A stretch of DNA of 64,000 nt, taken from NCBI GenBank assembly GCA_963775425.1, contig CAVZJB010000003.1, positions 416,001 to 480,000 of the forward strand, read 5' to 3'. Below the pieces are notes generated by a model that was not told the origin of the DNA, ran no database searches, and worked only from the letters and a program-made list of their open reading frames with translations. This DNA is from an uncultured delta proteobacterium (lineage in GTDB: Bacteria > Myxococcota > UBA727 > VGSZ01). Shown here in pieces: positions 38,304 to 50,456 of the stretch. How positions within the stretch are numbered: the stretch's first letter is position 1; each line of letters starts with the position of its first letter. A program made the translations under genes and the position numbers.

Positions 38304-39827
38304 GTGACCACCGTTCGCGGAAAGGGGCCCGTGAAGCGGGGGCGCCGTCCTCTCGCGGACGGCGCGCTCCCGAAGAACGCGCCGGGCGTGAAGCGTGAGC
38401 ACCCCGCGCGCGCCAAGACGACGCCGGTGCCCTCAGGCGTAGACGCCCTCCAGCGCTTCGTCGCCGCCGATGTCCACGGCGCGGTGGACCCGGTCGTCCT
38501 GCGCTCCCACGCCGTCGACGAGTCGCTCGACAGCGTCTTTCGCAAGCACATGGTGGACTTCCGCACGTCCTTCGACGAGATGCGCAAGCAGCCGCCGTCG
38601 GTGGTGTTCTTCGGCGGCGCGCGGCTCAAACCGGGGGAGCCGCACTACGCGCTCGCCGAGGCCTTCGGGCGCGTGCTCGCCGAGCGCGGCATCCCGCCCA
38701 AGACGGGCCGCGGCCCCGGCGCCATGGAGGCGGTGCCCGCCGAGTTCATCGAGGCGCGCGACCACCGCACCGCGAAGGTGGTGCAGTCCGTGGTCGGCGG
38801 CGTCTCGCGGCTCGCGCACCTCGACGATCAGCGCACGCTCGGCTTCAACATCATCCTCCCCAAGGAGCAGGCGCCGAGCCCGGCCATCGAAAACGGCGGC
38901 GAGATCCAGAACTTCGCGTTCCGCAAGTTCGCGCTCTACGAGAACGTCCGCGGCGTCGTCGTGCTGCCCGGCGGCTTCGGCACCATGGACGAGCTCATGG
39001 AGGTCCTCGTCCTCAAGAAGAACGGCCGCACCCACGACCCCGTCGTGCTCGCAGGCACCGACTACTGGCAGCCCATCCTCGATGCCTGGAGGACGGCGGC
39101 CCAAAGGAACGGGGCGGACCTGCTCGCGGGGCTCCTCGACGAGGTGCTCGTCACCGACAATCCGCACGTCGCGCTCGACTACATCGAGGGGCAAAAGGGC
39201 GTGCGCTCCTTCGAGGAGGATCCCGACGTCCTCTACAAGCGCATGGTCCGGGAGATCAAGCTCGCGCGCTACGTCGCCGTTCGCCAGGACAAGGCCGTCA
39301 CCGTCCTCGGCGGCAACCGCCTGCGTCACGACGATCCCGCGCTCTCGCTCATCGCGGACCTCGCCGGCCGCATCGATCAGGCGGGCGAGCCGCTGCGCGT
39401 CGGCGAGGAGGGCCAGGTGGAGCGAGCGGTGGTGGCGGCGGCGGGCGACGTGCAGCGCGTCCTGTGGAGCGAGGACCCGTCGGTGCACAAGCGCAGCGAC
39501 GTCGACGTCGACGACGTTCGCTTCCACGAGCGTGTGCCGCAAAAGGAGGTCCTGCTGCGCAACGCCTCCGCCTACGTCGTCCTGCCCGACGCCGCGCGCG
39601 GCAAGGACGAGCTGTGCACCGTGCTGTGTCAGATCCAGACGGGCAAGCTGCCGAAGCGGCCCATCGTCCTCGTCGACAGCGCCTTTTGGAAGCCCATCGT
39701 CGACGCCTGGACCGCCCAGATGCTCGGCCCCGATCACGCGTACATCGCTCCCGACGACGTCAGCCTCATCAGCTACGCGGACACGGCCGACCAGGCCTTC
39801 GATGCCCTCGCGTCCGTGCTGCCGTAG
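38304..39827 (+). CDS. LOG-family nucleotide monophosphate phosphoribohydrolase with tandem LOG domains
   Basis: VVFFGGAR, TGRGPGAMEA, F.FRK and LPGGFGTMDEL motifs. The second copy is degenerate (LPDAARGKDEL..IQTGK..PIVL..FW). Confidence 0.85.
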   Translation: MTTVRGKGPVKRGRRPLADGALPKNAPGVKREHPARAKTTPVPSGVDALQRFVAADVHGAVDPVVLRSHAVDESLDSVFRKHMVDFRTSFDEMRKQPPSVVFFGGARLKPGEPHYALAEAFGRVLAERGIPPKTGRGPGAMEAVPAEFIEARDHRTAKVVQSVVGGVSRLAHLDDQRTLGFNIILPKEQAPSPAIENGGEIQNFAFRKFALYENVRGVVVLPGGFGTMDELMEVLVLKKNGRTHDPVVLAGTDYWQPILDAWRTAAQRNGADLLAGLLDEVLVTDNPHVALDYIEGQKGVRSFEEDPDVLYKRMVREIKLARYVAVRQDKAVTVLGGNRLRHDDPALSLIADLAGRIDQAGEPLRVGEEGQVERAVVAAAGDVQRVLWSEDPSVHKRSDVDVDDVRFHERVPQKEVLLRNASAYVVLPDAARGKDELCTVLCQIQTGKLPKRPIVLVDSAFWKPIVDAWTAQMLGPDHAYIAPDDVSLISYADTADQAFDALASVLP

Positions 39828-41151: not shown

Positions 41152-42408
41152 TCAGCGCGCGGGCAGCGCGAGCTCGATGGCGGCCCCGGCGGCGCCCGGC
41201 ACGATCCGCCAGCTCCCGCCGCTCGCGGTGACGACGGCGTCGACGATGCGGAAGCCGAGGCCGCTGCCGCCGGTCTTGGTGGTGCCGCTCGGCCGCGCGG
41301 AGAGGCCCGGGCCGTCGTCGACCACGCGCACGCCGCCGGCGGCGGGCTCCACGCGGATGCGCGAGGCCCCCCGCGTGCCGTCCCCCTCGCACGCGTTCAA
41401 AAGGAGGTTGAGCGCCACGCGCTCGAGCGCGATCGCCCCGCCGGCGACGCGGGCGAAGGCGCTCACCTCGACGTCGATCGCGACGTCGGGGAAGCGCGCG
41501 GCCACCACGCGCGCGGCGCGGGTGAACGCGCTGGCGACGTCGACGTCGTCGACGACCTCCAGGGCGGCGGCCTCGGCGAGGGCGTCGGCGCGCAGCGAGC
41601 GCAGCACGCGTTGGGCGGCGCCCAGGTCTTCGCGGAGGCGATCGGCGTGCACGCGGTGGCCGGCGTCGAGCGCGCCGCGCTCGTCGAGCTCGCGCGCCAT
41701 CAGCTCGGCGTTCAACAGCGCCGAGCCGAGCGTGCTCTTCAAGTCATGGTGCTCCTCGATGACGGTCTCGAGGCCGCGCCGCGCGCGGTCGGCGCGCACC
41801 GACGAGGTGGCCGCGTCCTCGGCCATGGACCGCGCCCGGCGCGCCACGGCGATGGCCGTCGCCGACGTGAAGGCGACGCACATGACGATGATGAGGGGCG
41901 TGCCCTGCGTGGTGTGGAGCTGCCCCGGGACCAGCAGGTGGTCCAGCGCGATGAGCGCGGCCAGCGAAGCGGCGTTCAGGATCGATCCGGCGACCGCCAC
42001 AGGCGTGGAGAGCCGGAAGCCCGCGACGGTGATCATGAGGAACAGCACCGCGACGTCGGGGTGCCCGAGCACGCCGCGGTAGACCGCCGCCGGCCACAAC
42101 ACGTTGGACGCGAGCGCCAGGAAGCACACGGCGGCGTCGATGCTCACCGACGCATAGAGGAGCCCCCGGGGAAAGGCGGGCCGGCGCGTGCGCCGCACGA
42201 TCCAGATCGAAAACGCGGCCGTGACCGCCACCGCGGGCACCATGACGAGGGCGCCGGTGGGCACGCGATCGCCGTCCCAGAGCCCGCCGAAGGACGCGCG
42301 GCGGACGATCGCGGCGACGCAGAACACCGCGCGCGCGCTGGAGATCCAGCGCTCGCTGGCGCGGGTGCTCCCATCGACGATGGAGGCGACAGCGGCGTCC
42401 ACGATCAC
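41152..42408 (-). CDS. Multi-TM sensor histidine kinase
   Basis: 5-6 TM segments; HDLKSTL H-box; NLLLNA; DDGPG; GSGLGF. Divergent from a response regulator. Confidence 0.75.
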   Translation of the reverse strand: MIVDAAVASIVDGSTRASERWISSARAVFCVAAIVRRASFGGLWDGDRVPTGALVMVPAVAVTAAFSIWIVRRTRRPAFPRGLLYASVSIDAAVCFLALASNVLWPAAVYRGVLGHPDVAVLFLMITVAGFRLSTPVAVAGSILNAASLAALIALDHLLVPGQLHTTQGTPLIIVMCVAFTSATAIAVARRARSMAEDAATSSVRADRARRGLETVIEEHHDLKSTLGSALLNAELMARELDERGALDAGHRVHADRLREDLGAAQRVLRSLRADALAEAAALEVVDDVDVASAFTRAARVVAARFPDVAIDVEVSAFARVAGGAIALERVALNLLLNACEGDGTRGASRIRVEPAAGGVRVVDDGPGLSARPSGTTKTGGSGLGFRIVDAVVTASGGSWRIVPGAAGAAIELALPAR

Positions 42409-42474
42409 TCTGTGTCACCGGTGGGCTGTCTCATGCAAGGCGCGGCGCGGCGGATCCGGGCTAGCGTCGCAGCC

Positions 42475-43035
42475 ATGAGCCGGCCCGTATCCCGCATCCT
42501 CGTCGTCGATGACCACGAGAGCCTGCGCGGCCAGCTCATGCGCGCCCTGGTGCGGCGCGCCGACGACGTGATCGGCGCCGGGACCGTCGCCGAGGCCCGG
42601 GACGCGCTCGCGGCCCCGCCCCCGCCCGATCTGGTCCTCCTCGACGTGGCCCTCCCCGACGGAGACGCGTTCGACGTCCTCGCGGCCATCGACGGGCTCA
42701 CGCCCGCCCCGGTCGTCGTCGGGATGAGCGGCAGCGCCACCAATTCCCAGGCGTTCGCGCTCGCCACCCGCGGCGTGCGCGCGTTCATCGGAAAGCCACT
42801 CGAGCTCGACGAGCTCTACGCGGTGATCGACGCGGCGCTCGACGCGGCGCCGCCGTTCGCCCCCACGGTGCGCGCGGCCGTGGGGCACACCTCGCTCGAC
42901 GACGTCGAGGAGGACGTGCGCGCGCTGATGGTCAAGGAGGCGCTCGCGCTCTCCGGCGGCAACCGTCGCGCCGCCGCGCGCATGCTCTCGATCACCCGCC
43001 AGCGCCTTCAGTACATCCTGCGCTCCGCCGATTGA
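42475..43035 (+). CDS. Response regulator (REC + Fis-type HTH, RegA/PrrA-like)
   Basis: ILVVDD, LLDVALPDG, FIGKP and GGNRRAAARMLSITRQRL motifs. Start 42475. Confidence 0.88.
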   Translation: MSRPVSRILVVDDHESLRGQLMRALVRRADDVIGAGTVAEARDALAAPPPPDLVLLDVALPDGDAFDVLAAIDGLTPAPVVVGMSGSATNSQAFALATRGVRAFIGKPLELDELYAVIDAALDAAPPFAPTVRAAVGHTSLDDVEEDVRALMVKEALALSGGNRRAAARMLSITRQRLQYILRSAD

Positions 43036-43068: not shown

Positions 43069-44046
43069 TCAGGCGCCGACGGCGGGCGTGGAGGTCACGC
43101 GCGTGAAGCCGAAGCGCCGCACGAGGCCGACGCGCCCGTCCACGACGGCTAGCGGGCGCTCGAGCCGCAACACGCCGTCGCCGCCGAGGACGCCGTCGGA
43201 CATGCCGGCGGCGCCGCCGAACGCCGTGCACGCCTCGCCCGCCGGCGCCGGCGCGCGCACGAGGCCCGAGAGGTGGAGCACGCGCGCGAGCGGAAGCGGG
43301 GCCCCGGCCACGATCCCGCCCGCGGCACGGTCCAGCGCGGGGGAAAACAGCGTGACCGTGTCGCCGGCGCGCGCGGGGACGCCGTCGACGACGCCACCCA
43401 GCTCCCGCCAGCCAGCGGTGGCGTCGTCGTCGAAGAGGAGCGCCCGGGGCGCGCGCTCCTCGAGCGCGCCCCACAACAGGCGCGCCTTCGCGCCGTCGCC
43501 CGCGCCTGCCGGGCGCGCGCCGTCGCCGGCGACGGCGGCGAGGAAGCCGGCGTGAACGCGGGGCAGGGCGGTGGCGTCGACGAGGTCGAGGAGCGCGTGC
43601 AGCTCGCGCGCGCCGAGGGACGCGCCGTCGCCCGCGAGGGAGAGCGCCGGCATGTCGTCGCCGGGCAGCTCCCCCTCGAACAGCAGGTCGCGCCCGAGGC
43701 TCTCCCGGAGCGCCGCCGGTCCGTCGGCCGGCACCACCGTCACGGCGCGGCGCACGCCGCACGCGTGCAGCACGTGGAGGTCGCGCGCCGCGTCGCCGGT
43801 GGCGCGGCCGGCGACGACGATGGCGAGGTCGGCGCCGCGGGAACGCCCGACGCGCGCGCGCAGCGGGAGCTCGGCCGGCAGCTCCTCGAGGAGCAGCTCG
43901 TACAGCTCCGTCTCGACGAGCACGACGTCACCGGGGCTCCCCGCGGGGGCAGGTTTCGTGCGGGCCCCCGCGGCGAGGGCGCGCGCGAACGACGGCCGCG
44001 GGCGCGCGCGGGCATCGACGAGCACGGCCCGGATACGCGGCTTCAC
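43069..44046 (-). CDS. Degenerate EF-Tu-like protein (three-domain layout, G motifs lost)
   Basis: Colinear EF-Tu-like segments KPRIR, GADLAIVVA, GRDLL..ELPGDDMP, ARAGDTV and LERPLAVVDG. GTG start overlaps the GNAT stop (GTGA). Confidence 0.6.
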   Translation of the reverse strand: MKPRIRAVLVDARARPRPSFARALAAGARTKPAPAGSPGDVVLVETELYELLLEELPAELPLRARVGRSRGADLAIVVAGRATGDAARDLHVLHACGVRRAVTVVPADGPAALRESLGRDLLFEGELPGDDMPALSLAGDGASLGARELHALLDLVDATALPRVHAGFLAAVAGDGARPAGAGDGAKARLLWGALEERAPRALLFDDDATAGWRELGGVVDGVPARAGDTVTLFSPALDRAAGGIVAGAPLPLARVLHLSGLVRAPAPAGEACTAFGGAAGMSDGVLGGDGVLRLERPLAVVDGRVGLVRRFGFTRVTSTPAVGA

Positions 44047-44480
44047 GTGTGCCACACGAGGCGCGACAGGCGGGGCTCGCGCGAGGGGACCACGACGAAG
44101 CCGAGCTTCTTTGCGCACGCGATGGCGGCGCCGGCGCGCGGGGGGACGTGCACGCTCATGGGGACGTCGGCGCGGATGGCCTCGTCGATGAGCTCGCGCC
44201 CGAGCGCGAGCCCCACGCCGCGACGCCGAAACGGGGGAGCGACGACGAGCTCCGCGATGTGGACCTCGTGGCGCGGTCGCAGCACGCGCATGAACGCGGC
44301 GACCTCCTCGCCCTCGACGAGGACGACGTGGGCGCCGGCCTCGAACGCCGCGCGCCACGCGCGCTCGTCGAGGAGCGGGTGGTCGGGCTCCACCACGGCG
44401 GCGAACGCGTCGCGCGTGAGCGTCCACAACACGCCGGCGTCGCGGGCGGTGGAGGCGCGGCGGCCGAGCCGGAGCTTCAT
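44043..44480 (-). CDS. GNAT-family N-acetyltransferase
   Basis: HIAELVVAPPFRRRGVG acetyl-CoA motif A and KKLGF. ATGA/GTGA coupling on both sides. Confidence 0.8.
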   Translation of the reverse strand: MKLRLGRRASTARDAGVLWTLTRDAFAAVVEPDHPLLDERAWRAAFEAGAHVVLVEGEEVAAFMRVLRPRHEVHIAELVVAPPFRRRGVGLALGRELIDEAIRADVPMSVHVPPRAGAAIACAKKLGFVVVPSREPRLSRLVWHT

Positions 44481-45271
44481 CGGCGCACCCTGCGCACCGC
44501 GACGACGTCGTTTTCCTCGTCGAGCCACGCGACGCGTTTGGCGGGCGGCGGCAGGCAGCGCGCGGCGAGGCGCACGGGGCCGTGGGCGTCGCCCTGGCGC
44601 GCGCCGACGACGCAGCGGCCCGTGAACAGCGTGGCGCGGGCGCGCGCCGTGGGCCGCGCGCCCGGGGGGCCGCCTCCGTCGCGGGCCGCCGGCGGCGCGC
44701 CCTCGAGGGAGAGCGCGTCGGTGAGCGGGCCCGTCGGCAGCGCCCGCGGCCGGGCGGCGGCGACGAGCGCGGAGAGCGGCGCGGCGAGGCGCTCGAGGTC
44801 GTCGTCGTCGAACCCGGGCGCGGGCCGGACCACCGCGGCGCCGTCGCCGTCGAGGCCCCACTGCGCGATGAGCCCGCGCAGGCGTCGCTCGGCGTCGTCG
44901 TCGCCGGCGACGAGGGCGACCGCGGGGACGGCGGCGACCGCCGCGAGCTTCAGCACGTGCCGCGCGCGCGCCGGCAGCGGTTCGAGGAGCACGAGGAGCG
45001 ACGCGCGGGCGAGCGCCTCCGCCCAGGCGGCGAGGGTGGCGCCGCCGCCGGGATCGCGGACGAGGGCGACGTCGATGTCCTCGGCGACGGCCCACGGCCG
45101 CGCGGCCAACGCCTCGGCGGGCGCGTCGAGGGCGAGGCCCGCGCCGCCGACGACGGCGACGCGCACCGGCGGGCGTGAGCCGCTCCACACGAGCCAGCCG
45201 CCGGCGGTCTCGCCGACGACGAGCGCGTCCTCGGGCAGGTCCTCGGTCTTCGACACGGCCCGCTCAGACAC
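44477..45271 (-). CDS. Degenerate, shortened EF-Tu G-domain-like protein
   Basis: RPPVRVAVVG, RDPG, PLPARARHVLKLAAVAAVP and ERRLRGLIAQWGLDGDGAAVVR parallel EF-Tu G-domain segments. Overlaps both neighbours. Confidence 0.5.
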   Translation of the reverse strand: MSERAVSKTEDLPEDALVVGETAGGWLVWSGSRPPVRVAVVGGAGLALDAPAEALAARPWAVAEDIDVALVRDPGGGATLAAWAEALARASLLVLLEPLPARARHVLKLAAVAAVPAVALVAGDDDAERRLRGLIAQWGLDGDGAAVVRPAPGFDDDDLERLAAPLSALVAAARPRALPTGPLTDALSLEGAPPAARDGGGPPGARPTARARATLFTGRCVVGARQGDAHGPVRLAARCLPPPAKRVAWLDEENDVVAVRRVRR

Positions 45272-46208
45272 CGAGGCCCCCCTCGGTCCGGGTGGAGCGT
45301 ACGTGCAGGACGCGCACGGGGCCGAGCCCGGCCCCCTTGAGGAGCACCACGCCGACGCGCCCCTGGTTCGGGCAGATGGGGCGGTCGACCTCGACGACGC
45401 CGCCGCCGAAGCGCGCGTGGCCGAAGCCGCCGTTTCCCCCGAACGCGATGCAGGGCTCGATTCCGACCGACGCGCCGTCGGGCTCGACGACGAAGCGGCG
45501 CGCCGAGGGCAGGGGCTCGCTGGCGATCACGAGCTCGTCGCCGTTTTCGAACGGATGATCCCCAAGGTCGAACGACGTGAAGCGCTCGCCGTGCGTGACC
45601 ACCACGCTCCTGCGCAGGAAGCCTTCCGGCCACAGCACGTGCGCCTCCGCGCGCGCGGGCATGGGCCCATGAATGACCCGGCCCCAAAACGGCGCGGGTG
45701 CGCGCCGCGCGCCGGCGACGCGCGCGACGGCGAGGAAGCCGTCGTGGAAGATCGGCGCCGCCGCGCGGGCGACGAGGTCCGCGACGGAGTCCTCCGTCGA
45801 TCCCGACAGCGCGTCGTCGCCGCCGGCGAGGTCGGCGCCGAGGCCGGTGACGAGATAGCGCGCGCTGCGCTCGTCGACGTCGCGGCAGCCGGGCGGGACC
45901 GCGATCACCGCGGCGCGTGCGCCGGCGGCGACTGCGATGCGCGCGGCGCGGGCGACCGCGGAGACGTGGGGGCCGGCGACGACGACGACGACGTCGGCGC
46001 CGCGGGCGGCTTCGATCATCTCGCGGGTGCCGCGCGCCGGGAGCGTGACGAAGCGGACGTCGGCCTGCGCGCTCGCGACCGTGGTGCTGCGCGCCCCGTG
46101 CGCGCGCGGGGCGCCGGCGGGCAGCGAGGCGAGCGGCGCGTCGCTCGCGCGCGCGTCGAGGACGACCGCGGACAGGGTCGGTACCGGGCGCGCGCCGCTC
46201 ACGGTCAT
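45264..46208 (-). CDS. Degenerate EF-Tu-like protein, paralog of 43069-44046
   Basis: Shares DARA, RGAD..VVAG, H.GFLA, PLP.AR, C.AFGG and RP...GRVG with the paralog. EMIEAARGAD and WGRVIHG resemble EF-Tu NMITGAAQMD and TGRVERG. Confidence 0.55.
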   Translation of the reverse strand: MTVSGARPVPTLSAVVLDARASDAPLASLPAGAPRAHGARSTTVASAQADVRFVTLPARGTREMIEAARGADVVVVVAGPHVSAVARAARIAVAAGARAAVIAVPPGCRDVDERSARYLVTGLGADLAGGDDALSGSTEDSVADLVARAAAPIFHDGFLAVARVAGARRAPAPFWGRVIHGPMPARAEAHVLWPEGFLRRSVVVTHGERFTSFDLGDHPFENGDELVIASEPLPSARRFVVEPDGASVGIEPCIAFGGNGGFGHARFGGGVVEVDRPICPNQGRVGVVLLKGAGLGPVRVLHVRSTRTEGGLGV

Positions 46209-46262
46209 CGCCCGGACAATCGCACGACGCGCCGACCGCGGGGAGCGGCCGCGCTCAGCGCG

Positions 46263-49003
<2,741 letters not shown>

Positions 49004-49004
<1 letters not shown>

Positions 49005-50002
49005 CAGAGTGAGTCCGCGGCGAAGTGCGCAGCGCCGAGGAGCGGCGCCTTGTCGTTGAGGGCGACGTGCACGGGCACCTGGCGCAGGAGCTCCGCGAAG
49101 CGGCCCTTGTCGACGAAGGCCTTCATGAACGCCCCGCGCTGCAGGATGGGCAGCAGCTTGGGCGCGATGCCGCCGCCGATGAAGAGCCCGCCGGTGGCGA
49201 GGAACTTGAGCGCGACGTTGCCCGCCTCGGCGCCGTACAGGTGCGCGAACAGGTCGGCCGCGGCGGCGCACAGCCTGTCGGTGCCGTTGACGGCCTCGAC
49301 GCCGACGACGGCGCCCTTGTCACCGGTGGCCTTGATCTTGGCGGCGACGGCGGGGCTCTCCTCGTGCACGCCCTTGTGCTTGAGGAAGTCGTAGAGGTTG
49401 CCGATGCCCATGCCCGACACCACGCGCTCCCAGGACACGTGCTGCTCGTCGCTGCCGAGGCGGCGCGCCACGAAGGTGCGCAGCTCGAACTCGAGCGGGG
49501 TGGCGGGCGAGAAGGAGGCGTGGCCGCCCTCGGACGCCACGGGGCGGTGGCCGTCGCCGGTGTCGACGAGGAGGCCCTCGCCGAGGCCGGTGCCGGCGGC
49601 GATGACGGCGATGTTCCCCCGGCGGGGCCCGCTCTTGCCCGGGTTCAGCACGGACAGCTCGCTCTCGCCGAGGTGGAGCATGCCGTAGCCCGCCGCTTGC
49701 AGGTCGTTCAGCAGCCGCGCGCGGGGGACCTTCAAGGTCTCAGCGAGGGGGCCCTCGGCGAGGGTCCAGGGAAGGTTGGTGGTCTTGCACGCGCCGTCGA
49801 CGACGGCGCCCGGCACGCCGAAGCAGGCCATGCGCACGAGCACGTCGGGCGAGCCCTCCATGAAGGCGAGACAGAGGGCCTCGAGCGACGGGAAGTCGCG
49901 GCTGGCGTACGTCTGCTCGCGCACCTTCTCGAGCGTGCCGACCCCGCTCTCGTACAGAGCGAGCACGGTCTTGGTTCCTCCGACGTCACCGGCCAACAAC
50001 AT
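49004..50002 (-). CDS. glk: Glucokinase
   Basis: [40 protein letters not shown] and F.DKGRF motifs. Confidence 0.93.
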
Positions 50003-50051
50003 GGGACACCTCGCGAAGGGGCCCCCTTATCTGTCGTCGGGACCCTCGTCG

Positions 50052-50456
50052 TCAACCCGCGACGAGCGCGAGGAGCTGGACCACGTTTTTGGGGCAATCG
50101 AGGCCCTCCGGGCCGTCGAAGAAGCCGTGCTCCGTGAATTCCTCGTTGGGCACCACCTCGCCATCGACGTCGGCGACGAAGCAGAAGTTCATGTGCAGGC
50201 CCTTGCTGCCGGCGTCGTGCTCCTCGTAGGCGAGGAGGCCGGGCGGGGCGCCGTCGACGGCGCCCGGGCGCGCGTTGAACCGCCCCTCGAGGCCGGTCTC
50301 CTCGAACAGCTCGCGCCGGGCGGCCTCGAGCGGGGTCTCCCCGGGCTCGATCTCACCGCCCACGGGGAGCCAGGTGCCGAGGCGCTTGTGCTTGATGAGC
50401 AGCACCCGGCCGGTCGGGTCGCGGGCGAAGATGGCGACGGAGAAGGCGCGACGCAT
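50052..50456 (-). CDS. NUDIX hydrolase
   Basis: Nudix box GGEIEPGETPLEAARRELFEETG. Confidence 0.9.
   Translation of the reverse strand: MRRAFSVAIFARDPTGRVLLIKHKRLGTWLPVGGEIEPGETPLEAARRELFEETGLEGRFNARPGAVDGAPPGLLAYEEHDAGSKGLHMNFCFVADVDGEVVPNEEFTEHGFFDGPEGLDCPKNVVQLLALVAG

Follow-up and report, generated by a model that had tools for sequence, protein, structure and literature searches.

Few proteins are as conserved or as well studied as elongation factor EF-Tu, and what defines its relatives is a switch between conformations that is driven by GTP. In the closed state, the factors built on this fold (EF-Tu, SelB, eEF1A and a/eIF2-gamma) grip the acceptor end of an aminoacyl-tRNA or a tRNA-shaped protein. 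In this work we analyse a cluster of four minus-strand open reading frames (ORFs), here called ORF1 to ORF4, from the genome of an uncultured delta proteobacterium of the phylum Myxococcota (assembly GCA_963775425.1, contig CAVZJB010000003.1, positions 416,001 to 480,000), in which proteins that are very probably EF-Tu-fold pseudo-GTPases are linked to an acetyltransferase of the GNAT type (ORF3). The whole stretch of 64,000 nucleotides that was analysed is referred to as the window; coordinates and strands are positions in this window, and the cluster occupies 43069-46208.

A precedent for a translational GTPase that no longer works as one is found in eukaryotes, where Tsr1 sits on pre-40S particles at the site used by translation factors. 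The accessible part of the Tsr1 report (PMC4895721) describes this pre-40S factor as having an EF-Tu/SelB-like domain architecture without the residues for GTP binding and hydrolysis. Tsr1 resembles the family described here in being a pseudo-GTPase of the translational GTPase superfamily, but it is eukaryotic, much larger, essential and specific to ribosome biogenesis, and it is not known to have an acetyltransferase partner. In bacteria, the only distinct EF-Tu-like subfamily named in the accessible part of Atkinson 2015 (PMC4342817) is the actEF-Tu of actinomycetes, described there as condition-specific translation factors. As such, the actEF-Tu proteins are presumably active GTPases; they and the Tuf3-type proteins have in common with the present family that they are extra EF-Tu-derived paralogs in bacteria, whereas the family described here no longer has the nucleotide-binding motifs and has diverged much further. 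On the acetyltransferase side, GNAT toxins of the TacT/AtaT type acetylate the alpha-amine of aminoacyl-tRNA, and EF-Tu cannot use the product. Our searches of the literature on EF-Tu-like or pseudo-GTPase proteins with acetyltransferases found no match to the arrangement seen here, in agreement with a preliminary description of this DNA (made by eye from the sequence), whose author knew of no described system like this.

Relation of the ORF1/ORF4 family to EF-Tu

ORF1 and ORF4 share 32% identity over 253 aa (BLAST, E 1e-12), and an exhaustive HMMER search with a profile built from both, covering 1,835,955,588 representative proteins, delimits a family of 13 members (all at E<=1e-10). Two of these are the window's own and the other 11 come from metagenomes or metagenome-assembled genomes (MAGs), one of them carrying the source label of a Myxococcota MAG. 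The 10 full-length members, at 30-40% identity, have 17 invariant columns, which include D-A-R after the first strand, RGxD...V..G, G.R, E...R and FGG..G. No Pfam or NCBIfam family scores above threshold for ORF1, ORF2 or ORF4; lacking such a model, the family is annotated as "hypothetical protein", and its fusions (described below) merely as GNAT.

A maximum-likelihood tree of ten rows (from which the GNAT part of P0010 and three partial proteins were excluded) separates an ORF1-like lineage of three rows from an ORF4-like lineage of seven with a split support of 100/100, ORF1 itself grouping with P0008 and P0010, also at 100/100. Based on this split, the duplication predates the divergence of the carriers, and both paralog lineages are old and retained. 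Additionally, the cluster records give the same length for the contigs of P0010 and P0011 (10,877), as well as for those of P0008 and P0014 (3,437), which suggests, but does not prove, that each pair lies on one contig, with one member of each lineage apiece.

The relation of this family to EF-Tu becomes visible when the ten members are used as a profile. In a comparison with the PDB, EF-Tu chains make up the whole of the best 20 matches (E 1.6e-4 to 0.014), unrelated chains follow at E>0.05, and the alignments are colinear over EF-Tu positions 58-284, including the RGxD-VVVAG, GRVxxG and RAGD matches of the preliminary description. Among the 50,077 six-frame ORFs of at least 80 aa in the genome, the family profile has four matches at E<=10, of which two are the family genes and two are tuf genes (E 2.5e-4 and 6.5e-4 for the latter); no other GTPase is matched. 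In pairwise BLAST, ORF4 also matches the EF-Tu of its own host genome, with E 1e-5 on the "RDLLFEGELPGDDMP" segment. One profile comparison cuts against EF-Tu homology, since hhalign of the family with a single EF-Tu sequence gives E 0.006 at a probability of just 6%. Single-sequence PDB searches with ORF1, ORF2 and ORF4 return no EF-Tu match, none of these three proteins nor any of the 10 family members has a Pfam match of the GTP_EFTU type at E<=1, and GTP_EFTU_D2 (PF03144), with 12 matches over the genome at E<=1, has none at this locus.

The predicted structure points in the same direction. A template-free AlphaFold2 model of ORF4, for which ten family sequences were the only input, has a mean predicted local distance difference test (pLDDT) of 79.3 and a predicted template modelling score (pTM) of 0.81, and it displays three domains, a G-like domain and two beta-barrels, in the order of EF-Tu. 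Foldseek comparison of this model with the PDB gives a best E of 5.7e-13 and, among the 43 rows listed, only EF-Tu chains and one SelB. By VIA-align, the model superposes on GTP-form EF-Tu (4h9g) with Z 21.5 and a root-mean-square deviation of 4.0 A (309 of 325 residues), on 1eft and on the Phe-tRNA ternary complex (1ttt) with Z 21.3 each, and then on SelB (Z 20.1) and on eEF1A, aIF2-gamma and eRF3 (Z 18-19), while the sequence identity to EF-Tu in the structural matches amounts to 11-18%. The Foldseek TM-scores (TMq) are 0.59-0.67 against EF-Tu in the GTP-form, in the ternary complex or bound to the ribosome, versus 0.39-0.47 against the GDP-form, so that the ORF4 model is in the closed arrangement. 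For ORF1, an EF-Tu fold is expected from its paralogy with ORF4. The preliminary description had proposed AlphaFold and Foldseek as a check for an EF-Tu fold in each ORF; such a fold is indeed predicted for ORF4, and the ORF2 model came out at a pLDDT of 38.2.

Based on these profiles and on the predicted structure, the ORF1/ORF4 family is derived from EF-Tu and appears to have kept the whole three-domain fold. It shares with EF-Tu and SelB (the EF1 family) the architecture and domain order of the ORF4 model (Z 20-21.5 over about 300 residues), as well as colinear relics, both in domains II and III and in G-domain helices and strands, with homology detectable at the profile level. It differs from them in the loss of G1, G4 and G5, in the D-A-R that stands for the P-loop, in being about 70 residues shorter and so distant in sequence, in coming as two paralogs with a GNAT next to them or joined to one of them, and in being extremely rare, whereas EF-Tu is universal.

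The nucleotide-binding motifs were searched by pattern in 11 proteins (ORF1, ORF2, ORF4 and eight homologs). The G1 P-loop ([AG]xxxxGK[ST]) is found in none of the 11, and at its colinear place, where EF-Tu has GHVDHGKT, the invariant D-A-R (D11-A12-R13 in ORF4) is present in all 10 family members. A colinear G4 ([NT]KxD) is equally absent (0/11), the lone match to its pattern being at residue 17 of P0012. As for G3, no conserved DxxG follows strand 3 in the family, and a DPGG opposite the DCPG of EF-Tu occurs in ORF2 only. This check confirms the earlier observation, made by eye, that G1 and G4 are absent from all three EF-Tu-like ORFs of the operon, and by its motifs the family is a pseudo-GTPase in which every nucleotide-binding motif has been lost.

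The position of ORF2 is less clear-cut. In the preliminary description it was counted as the third EF-Tu-like protein, a count that stands for ORF1 and ORF4 and is much less secure for ORF2. By BLAST, ORF2 matches the host's own EF-Tu with E 0.007 on its "PLPARARHVL...VVR" segment (PMPQTREH...PGDD..V.R in EF-Tu), which the preliminary description had already pointed out, and hhalign with the family gives E 0.014 at a probability of 3%. Its score with the family hidden Markov model (HMM) is reached by 9 of 1000 shuffled sequences, and with a single-sequence EF-Tu HMM by 401 of 1000. When ORF2 is aligned by MAFFT with EF-Tu and the family members, it is colinear through the G domain, with five columns invariant in all 12 rows, and a protein-language-model look-up returned only GTP_EFTU clusters (0.82-0.84), as it did for ORF4, a result to be read as a lead only. 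ORF2 has no BLAST-detectable similarity to ORF1 or ORF4, and its single-sequence AlphaFold2 model (pTM 0.24, at the low pLDDT given above) is unusable for assigning a fold. On balance, we lean slightly towards ORF2 being a further-degraded relic of an EF-Tu G domain.

The acetyltransferase and the reaction it may catalyse

ORF3 is a GNAT: it matches Pfam Acetyltransf_1 (PF00583) with E 1.9e-11 and 44.7 bits (against a cut-off of 20.7), its acetyl-CoA motif RRRGVG (RxxGxG) is intact, and G88, V89 and G90 are invariant in the three GNATs aligned (3/3). Its nearest relative in the PDB is RimI (2cnm), with E 0.001 as a single sequence and 3.1e-9 as a profile, followed, within the best 60 of 91 matches, by Naa50 and by N-alpha-acetyltransferases of the ARD1 type. 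Among these 60 matches it is with such enzymes that the kinship of ORF3 lies, and none of the 60 bears out the analogy with TacT/AtaT-type GNATs drawn in the preliminary description. RimI is also the best NCBIfam match of ORF3 and is of similar size; ORF3, however, scores under the equivalog cut-off of that model (TIGR01575, 30.2 vs 86.4 bits), stands in another operon context, and has counterparts that are fused to pseudo-EF-Tu proteins.

The kinship with RimI leads to a first alternative for the function of the operon, in which the module would dock as EF-Tu does, at the factor-binding site of the ribosome and the L7/L12 stalk, and there either bring the acetyltransferase to a ribosomal protein whose N-terminus it would modify or occupy the site as a regulator. 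Such a ribosome-directed acetyltransferase or factor-site mimic would account for a GNAT that is closest to RimI (the N-terminal acetyltransferase of bS18) and to other protein N-alpha-acetyltransferases, and for a predicted full EF-Tu shape in the GTP-like, ribosome-binding conformation, given the TM-scores to ribosome-bound EF-Tu. It would also have a precedent in Tsr1, an inactive structural mimic of the translational GTPases according to the part of the report cited above (PMC4895721), and the ORF2 look-up included a cluster with Tsr1_G-like at 0.83, which is a lead only and the limit of any sequence relation between Tsr1 and this operon. We nevertheless consider it unlikely, as without GTP hydrolysis a release step is not obvious, the family is far too rare for a housekeeping modifier of the ribosome, and the GNAT remains under the RimI cut-off.

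The tie between the acetyltransferase and the family is provided by P0010 (467 aa) and P0015 (a partial protein), two homologs which consist of an ORF1-like protein, about 10 residues, and then a C-terminal GNAT domain. ORF3 aligns end to end with the fused GNAT (31% identity and E 6e-9 for P0015; 26% and E 0.024 for P0010), an alignment by which it is orthologous to the fused domain. Because of its fusion to an ORF1-like paralog in other organisms, the RimI-like GNAT belongs to the same module, and the functional tie between GNAT and EF-Tu-like proteins that the preliminary description had claimed is in this respect well founded.

Toxins are not usually fused covalently to their antitoxins, and the fusions bear on a second alternative, a toxin-antitoxin or defence module in which the GNAT would be a translation-poisoning toxin and the pseudo-EF-Tu proteins the antitoxins, sensors or decoys restraining it until a trigger arrives. 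With the TacT, AtaT and ItaT systems the operon has in common a small GNAT in a tightly coupled set of small genes, and their chemistry, acetylation of an aminoacyl alpha-amine, is the reaction proposed below; the operon differs from them in a GNAT that is nearest to the RimI/NAT enzymes, in partners that are EF-Tu-fold proteins rather than RHH/DUF1778 proteins, and in the two fusions. The small size and translational coupling of the genes, their patchy and very rare distribution (with absence from the 37 other genomes of the class), the established action of GNAT toxins on aminoacyl-tRNA and the known part of EF-Tu in phage defence, where it serves as target or sensor, could all be counted for such a module. 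Set against them, beside the fusions, is a series of negative results: none of five proteins (ORF1-4 and P0010) matches any of the 5027 models of PADLOC-DB 2.0 at E<=0.1; no antitoxin gene of the RHH/DUF1778 type adjoins the GNAT, whose flanks are ORF2 and ORF4, neither with such a domain; the GNAT is, within the best 60 PDB matches, no closer to TacT/AtaT than to RimI; beside the cluster no gene of phage or mobile-element type was seen; pattern scans of viral contigs gave no relatives; and the base composition at third codon positions, which equals that of the neighbours, gives no sign of recent import. We regard this alternative as quite improbable.

Considering the grip of closed EF-Tu-fold factors on the aminoacyl end together with the alpha-amine chemistry of RimI-like enzymes, the most economical reading is a GTP-independent capture of aminoacyl-tRNA followed by its N-alpha-acetylation. 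In this mechanism, the two pseudo-EF-Tu proteins (possibly with ORF2) would form a nucleotide-independent scaffold, fixed in a closed, "GTP-like" shape, which would act as the substrate-recognition subunit of a complex with the GNAT. The scaffold would present an alpha-amine to the N-alpha-acetyltransferase, most probably the one on the amino acid of an aminoacyl-tRNA, and the product would be N-acetyl-aminoacyl-tRNA, unusable by true EF-Tu. There may also be a division of labour, with one paralog carrying the enzyme and the other holding the substrate. The whole statement, that is, an operon of pseudo-EF-Tu proteins together with a mechanism of aminoacyl-tRNA acetylation, is put forward tentatively; the more specific claim, of a heteromeric and nucleotide-free EF-Tu-fold scaffold, permanently "on", that hands the alpha-amine of aminoacyl-tRNA to a dedicated N-alpha-acetyltransferase, we hold to be possible, if rather unlikely.

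Several observations weigh against this mechanism. The closed shape is seen in a predicted model only, built from 10 sequences. The family columns aligned with the "IEDVF" segment of EF-Tu, which lines the aminoacyl pocket, are not conserved, so that the canonical amino-acid pocket is not evident. The proteins are neutral to acidic (isoelectric points of 4.9-8.7), with no positive sign of RNA binding. On the enzyme side, none of TacT, AtaT and ItaT appears among the best 60 of the 91 PDB matches of ORF3 (E<=0.1), and at about residue 122 ORF3 has a Cys ("AIACAKKLGF") where both fused homologs have the Tyr of "ALY", in the "A..LY..LGF" helix; a Tyr at this position is the general acid in many GNATs. 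The direct EF-Tu signal of ORF1 is nil (BLAST E 0.80, with 386 of 1000 shuffles scoring as high), and a profile of the ORF1-like proteins alone finds no EF-Tu match in the PDB; the colinear EF-Tu relics reported in the preliminary description are thus recovered for ORF4 and for the family (by BLAST and profile), not directly for ORF1, and weakly for ORF2. Word-indexed searches with ORF2 (whole, and residues 20-180) gave no homologs; the same method returned the query alone for ORF4, and as homologs of ORF4 did turn up in the exhaustive search, the empty results are due to the method. Finally, ORF2 need not separate ORF1 from the GNAT, as the fusions show.

The operon, its distribution and its surroundings

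The four ORFs (Table 1) are a real, translationally coupled operon, and the preliminary description was right in this respect. With the preliminary gene boundaries, the GC content at third codon positions (GC3) is 0.937-0.962 and that at second positions (GC2) is 0.51-0.60 for ORF1-ORF4, and for a genome of 72% GC, values of 0.94-0.96 combined with this GC2 pattern are those of coding DNA. The ORF1/ORF2 junction reads GTGTCTGA, with an 8-base overlap of stop and start, whereas the junctions ORF2/GNAT (ATGA) and GNAT/ORF4 (GTGA) are 4-base overlaps of the two codons. Longer alternative starts of ORF3 (44043-45188) and ORF4 (43069-44427) bring GC3 down to 0.75-0.82, and a plus-strand open frame of 1781 aa (44049-49394), antisense to ORF1-ORF3 and to the GH63 gene, has a GC3 of 0.74 with 0.87 at first positions (GC1), by which it is a chance ORF of GC-rich DNA and no gene. 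With both alternatives worse in GC3, the frames and starts of Table 1 are the coding ones. A promoter and terminator scan of the locus gave no signal above shuffles.

Table 1. Features of the four-gene cluster and of its surroundings in the window
Feature	Positions	Strand	Description	GC3
ORF1 (P0001, 314 aa)	45264-46208	-	ORF1-like paralog of the putative EF-Tu-fold pseudo-GTPase family	0.937
ORF2 (P0002, 264 aa)	44477-45271	-	orphan, GTG start; possible degenerate EF-Tu G-domain with short beta-rich tail	0.962
ORF3 (P0003, 145 aa)	44043-44480	-	GNAT, RimI / N-alpha-acetyltransferase-like; RRRGVG acetyl-CoA motif	0.959
ORF4 (P0004, 325 aa)	43069-44046	-	ORF4-like paralog; predicted three-domain EF-Tu fold	0.951
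NUDIX - glucokinase (glk) - GH63/MGH1-like hydrolase (1002 aa)	46263-50456	-	directly upstream of ORF1, same strand	
Fis-HTH response regulator	42415-43035	+	converges on the cluster; end 33 bases from the ORF4 stop	
Histidine kinase	41152-42408	-	beyond the response regulator, on the strand opposite to it	
507-aa protein	38304-39827	+	two stretches of the LOG/"possible lysine decarboxylase" family	

The distribution of the family is very narrow. It was not found in the 10 other genomes of the host's family nor in the 37 others of its class, and no member was confirmed among 400 genomes sampled from the phylum; three marginal matches in that phylum (E 7e-4 to 1e-3 per genome), as well as the G005 match, have an E of 0.08 or worse with the 10-member profile and were taken as chance. 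Pattern scans of genomes from 185,579 GTDB species (scans A4 and A5) gave no relative, and a scan of metagenomes (A3) no family locus. A pattern scan based on P0010 returned six loci, which match its GNAT domain only and have no family gene adjoining.

If the cluster were made of pseudogenes in decay, or of frames that are open by chance because GC is very high, it would also lack homologs in the related genomes examined, would have a composition rich in Ala, Gly and Arg, and could contain frames of considerable length, as illustrated by the antisense frame of 1781 aa; for ORF2, moreover, no homologs were found. This explanation is contradicted by the coding pattern of the codon-position GC, by 11 homologs elsewhere that keep invariant residues at 30-40% identity, by the retention of two paralog lineages, by a confident three-domain fold predicted from the family sequences alone and by the recurrence of the GNAT fusion. 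It is already largely refuted for ORF1, ORF3 and ORF4 and is still considered for ORF2; for the operon as a whole we rate it as extremely improbable.

Upstream of the cluster, the stop of the GH63/MGH1-like gene lies 54 bases ahead of ORF1. The glk-GH63 pair is kept in related genera (GH63 identity of 70-77%) without the four-gene cluster after it, and beyond this pair the wider synteny is scrambled; with synteny limited to two genes, an insertion boundary for the cluster cannot be drawn. Further away, the 507-aa protein at 38304-39827 is long for the LOG family.

These surroundings bear on one more alternative, in which the pseudo-EF-Tu proteins would be a decoy or sponge that binds an EF-Tu-targeting antibiotic or protein toxin, the captured ligand then being acetylated by the GNAT, for self-resistance or immunity. 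An EF-Tu shape kept while EF-Tu function is lost would suit such a role, and antibiotic-modifying GNATs are common, several of them (AAC(3)-XI and the puromycin, nourseothricin and phosphinothricin acetyltransferases) being among the weaker PDB matches of ORF3. Many of the top structural matches of ORF4 are antibiotic-bound, GTP-like EF-Tu structures (2c77, 2c78, 1ha3 and 2bvn), which reflects the set that has been crystallised and is no evidence of binding. However, no biosynthetic gene cluster was seen beside the operon, its neighbours being glucokinase, the GH63-like hydrolase, the response regulator and the kinase, and at 11-18% identity to EF-Tu the antibiotic pockets are unlikely to be preserved. 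This role is, in our judgement, very improbable.

The cluster stands out by its base composition: at 78.8% GC it ranks among the highest 0.18% of the 8217 stretches of 3.14 kb taken from the genome (mean 71.9%). Its GC3, nevertheless, is 0.951 vs 0.946 in the neighbours, and the difference lies in the amino acids (Ala 18.5 vs 13.0%, Arg 10.6 vs 6.7%, Lys 1.0 vs 2.7%), the proteins of the cluster being rich in Ala, Gly and Arg and poor in Lys, Ile, Asn and Tyr (ORF1 has one lysine in the whole protein). As the GC excess comes from amino-acid composition and not from codon usage, it is no evidence of recent transfer, and an island of recent import was rejected on these grounds. The host genome itself measures 8.3 Mb; its class comprises 38 species genomes, and one family of 21 within it has genomes of 0.3-3.4 Mb, a striking range within one order.

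Implications for the EF-Tu superfamily

In the literature searched, no bacterial family combines a whole EF-Tu fold with the loss of nucleotide binding, two ancient paralogs and a link to an acetyltransferase. The present family would be a pseudo-enzyme of the EF-Tu superfamily in a new architecture with a GNAT, with a real chance that a new mechanism is at work, and it would represent a bacterial counterpart of eukaryotic pseudo-GTPases such as Tsr1. If binding to aminoacyl-tRNA or to the ribosome does proceed without GTP, these proteins would be a natural experiment from which to learn what keeps EF-Tu in the active conformation, and they would offer a new way of making N-acetyl-aminoacyl-tRNA or of directing N-terminal acetylation to a target. 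Should the proposed mechanism be true, a tRNA-modifying enzyme would here have a substrate adaptor that descends from EF-Tu, and bacteria would have their first pseudo-GTPase arising from a translation factor; it would also mean that the EF-Tu fold can freeze in its tRNA-binding state without any nucleotide.

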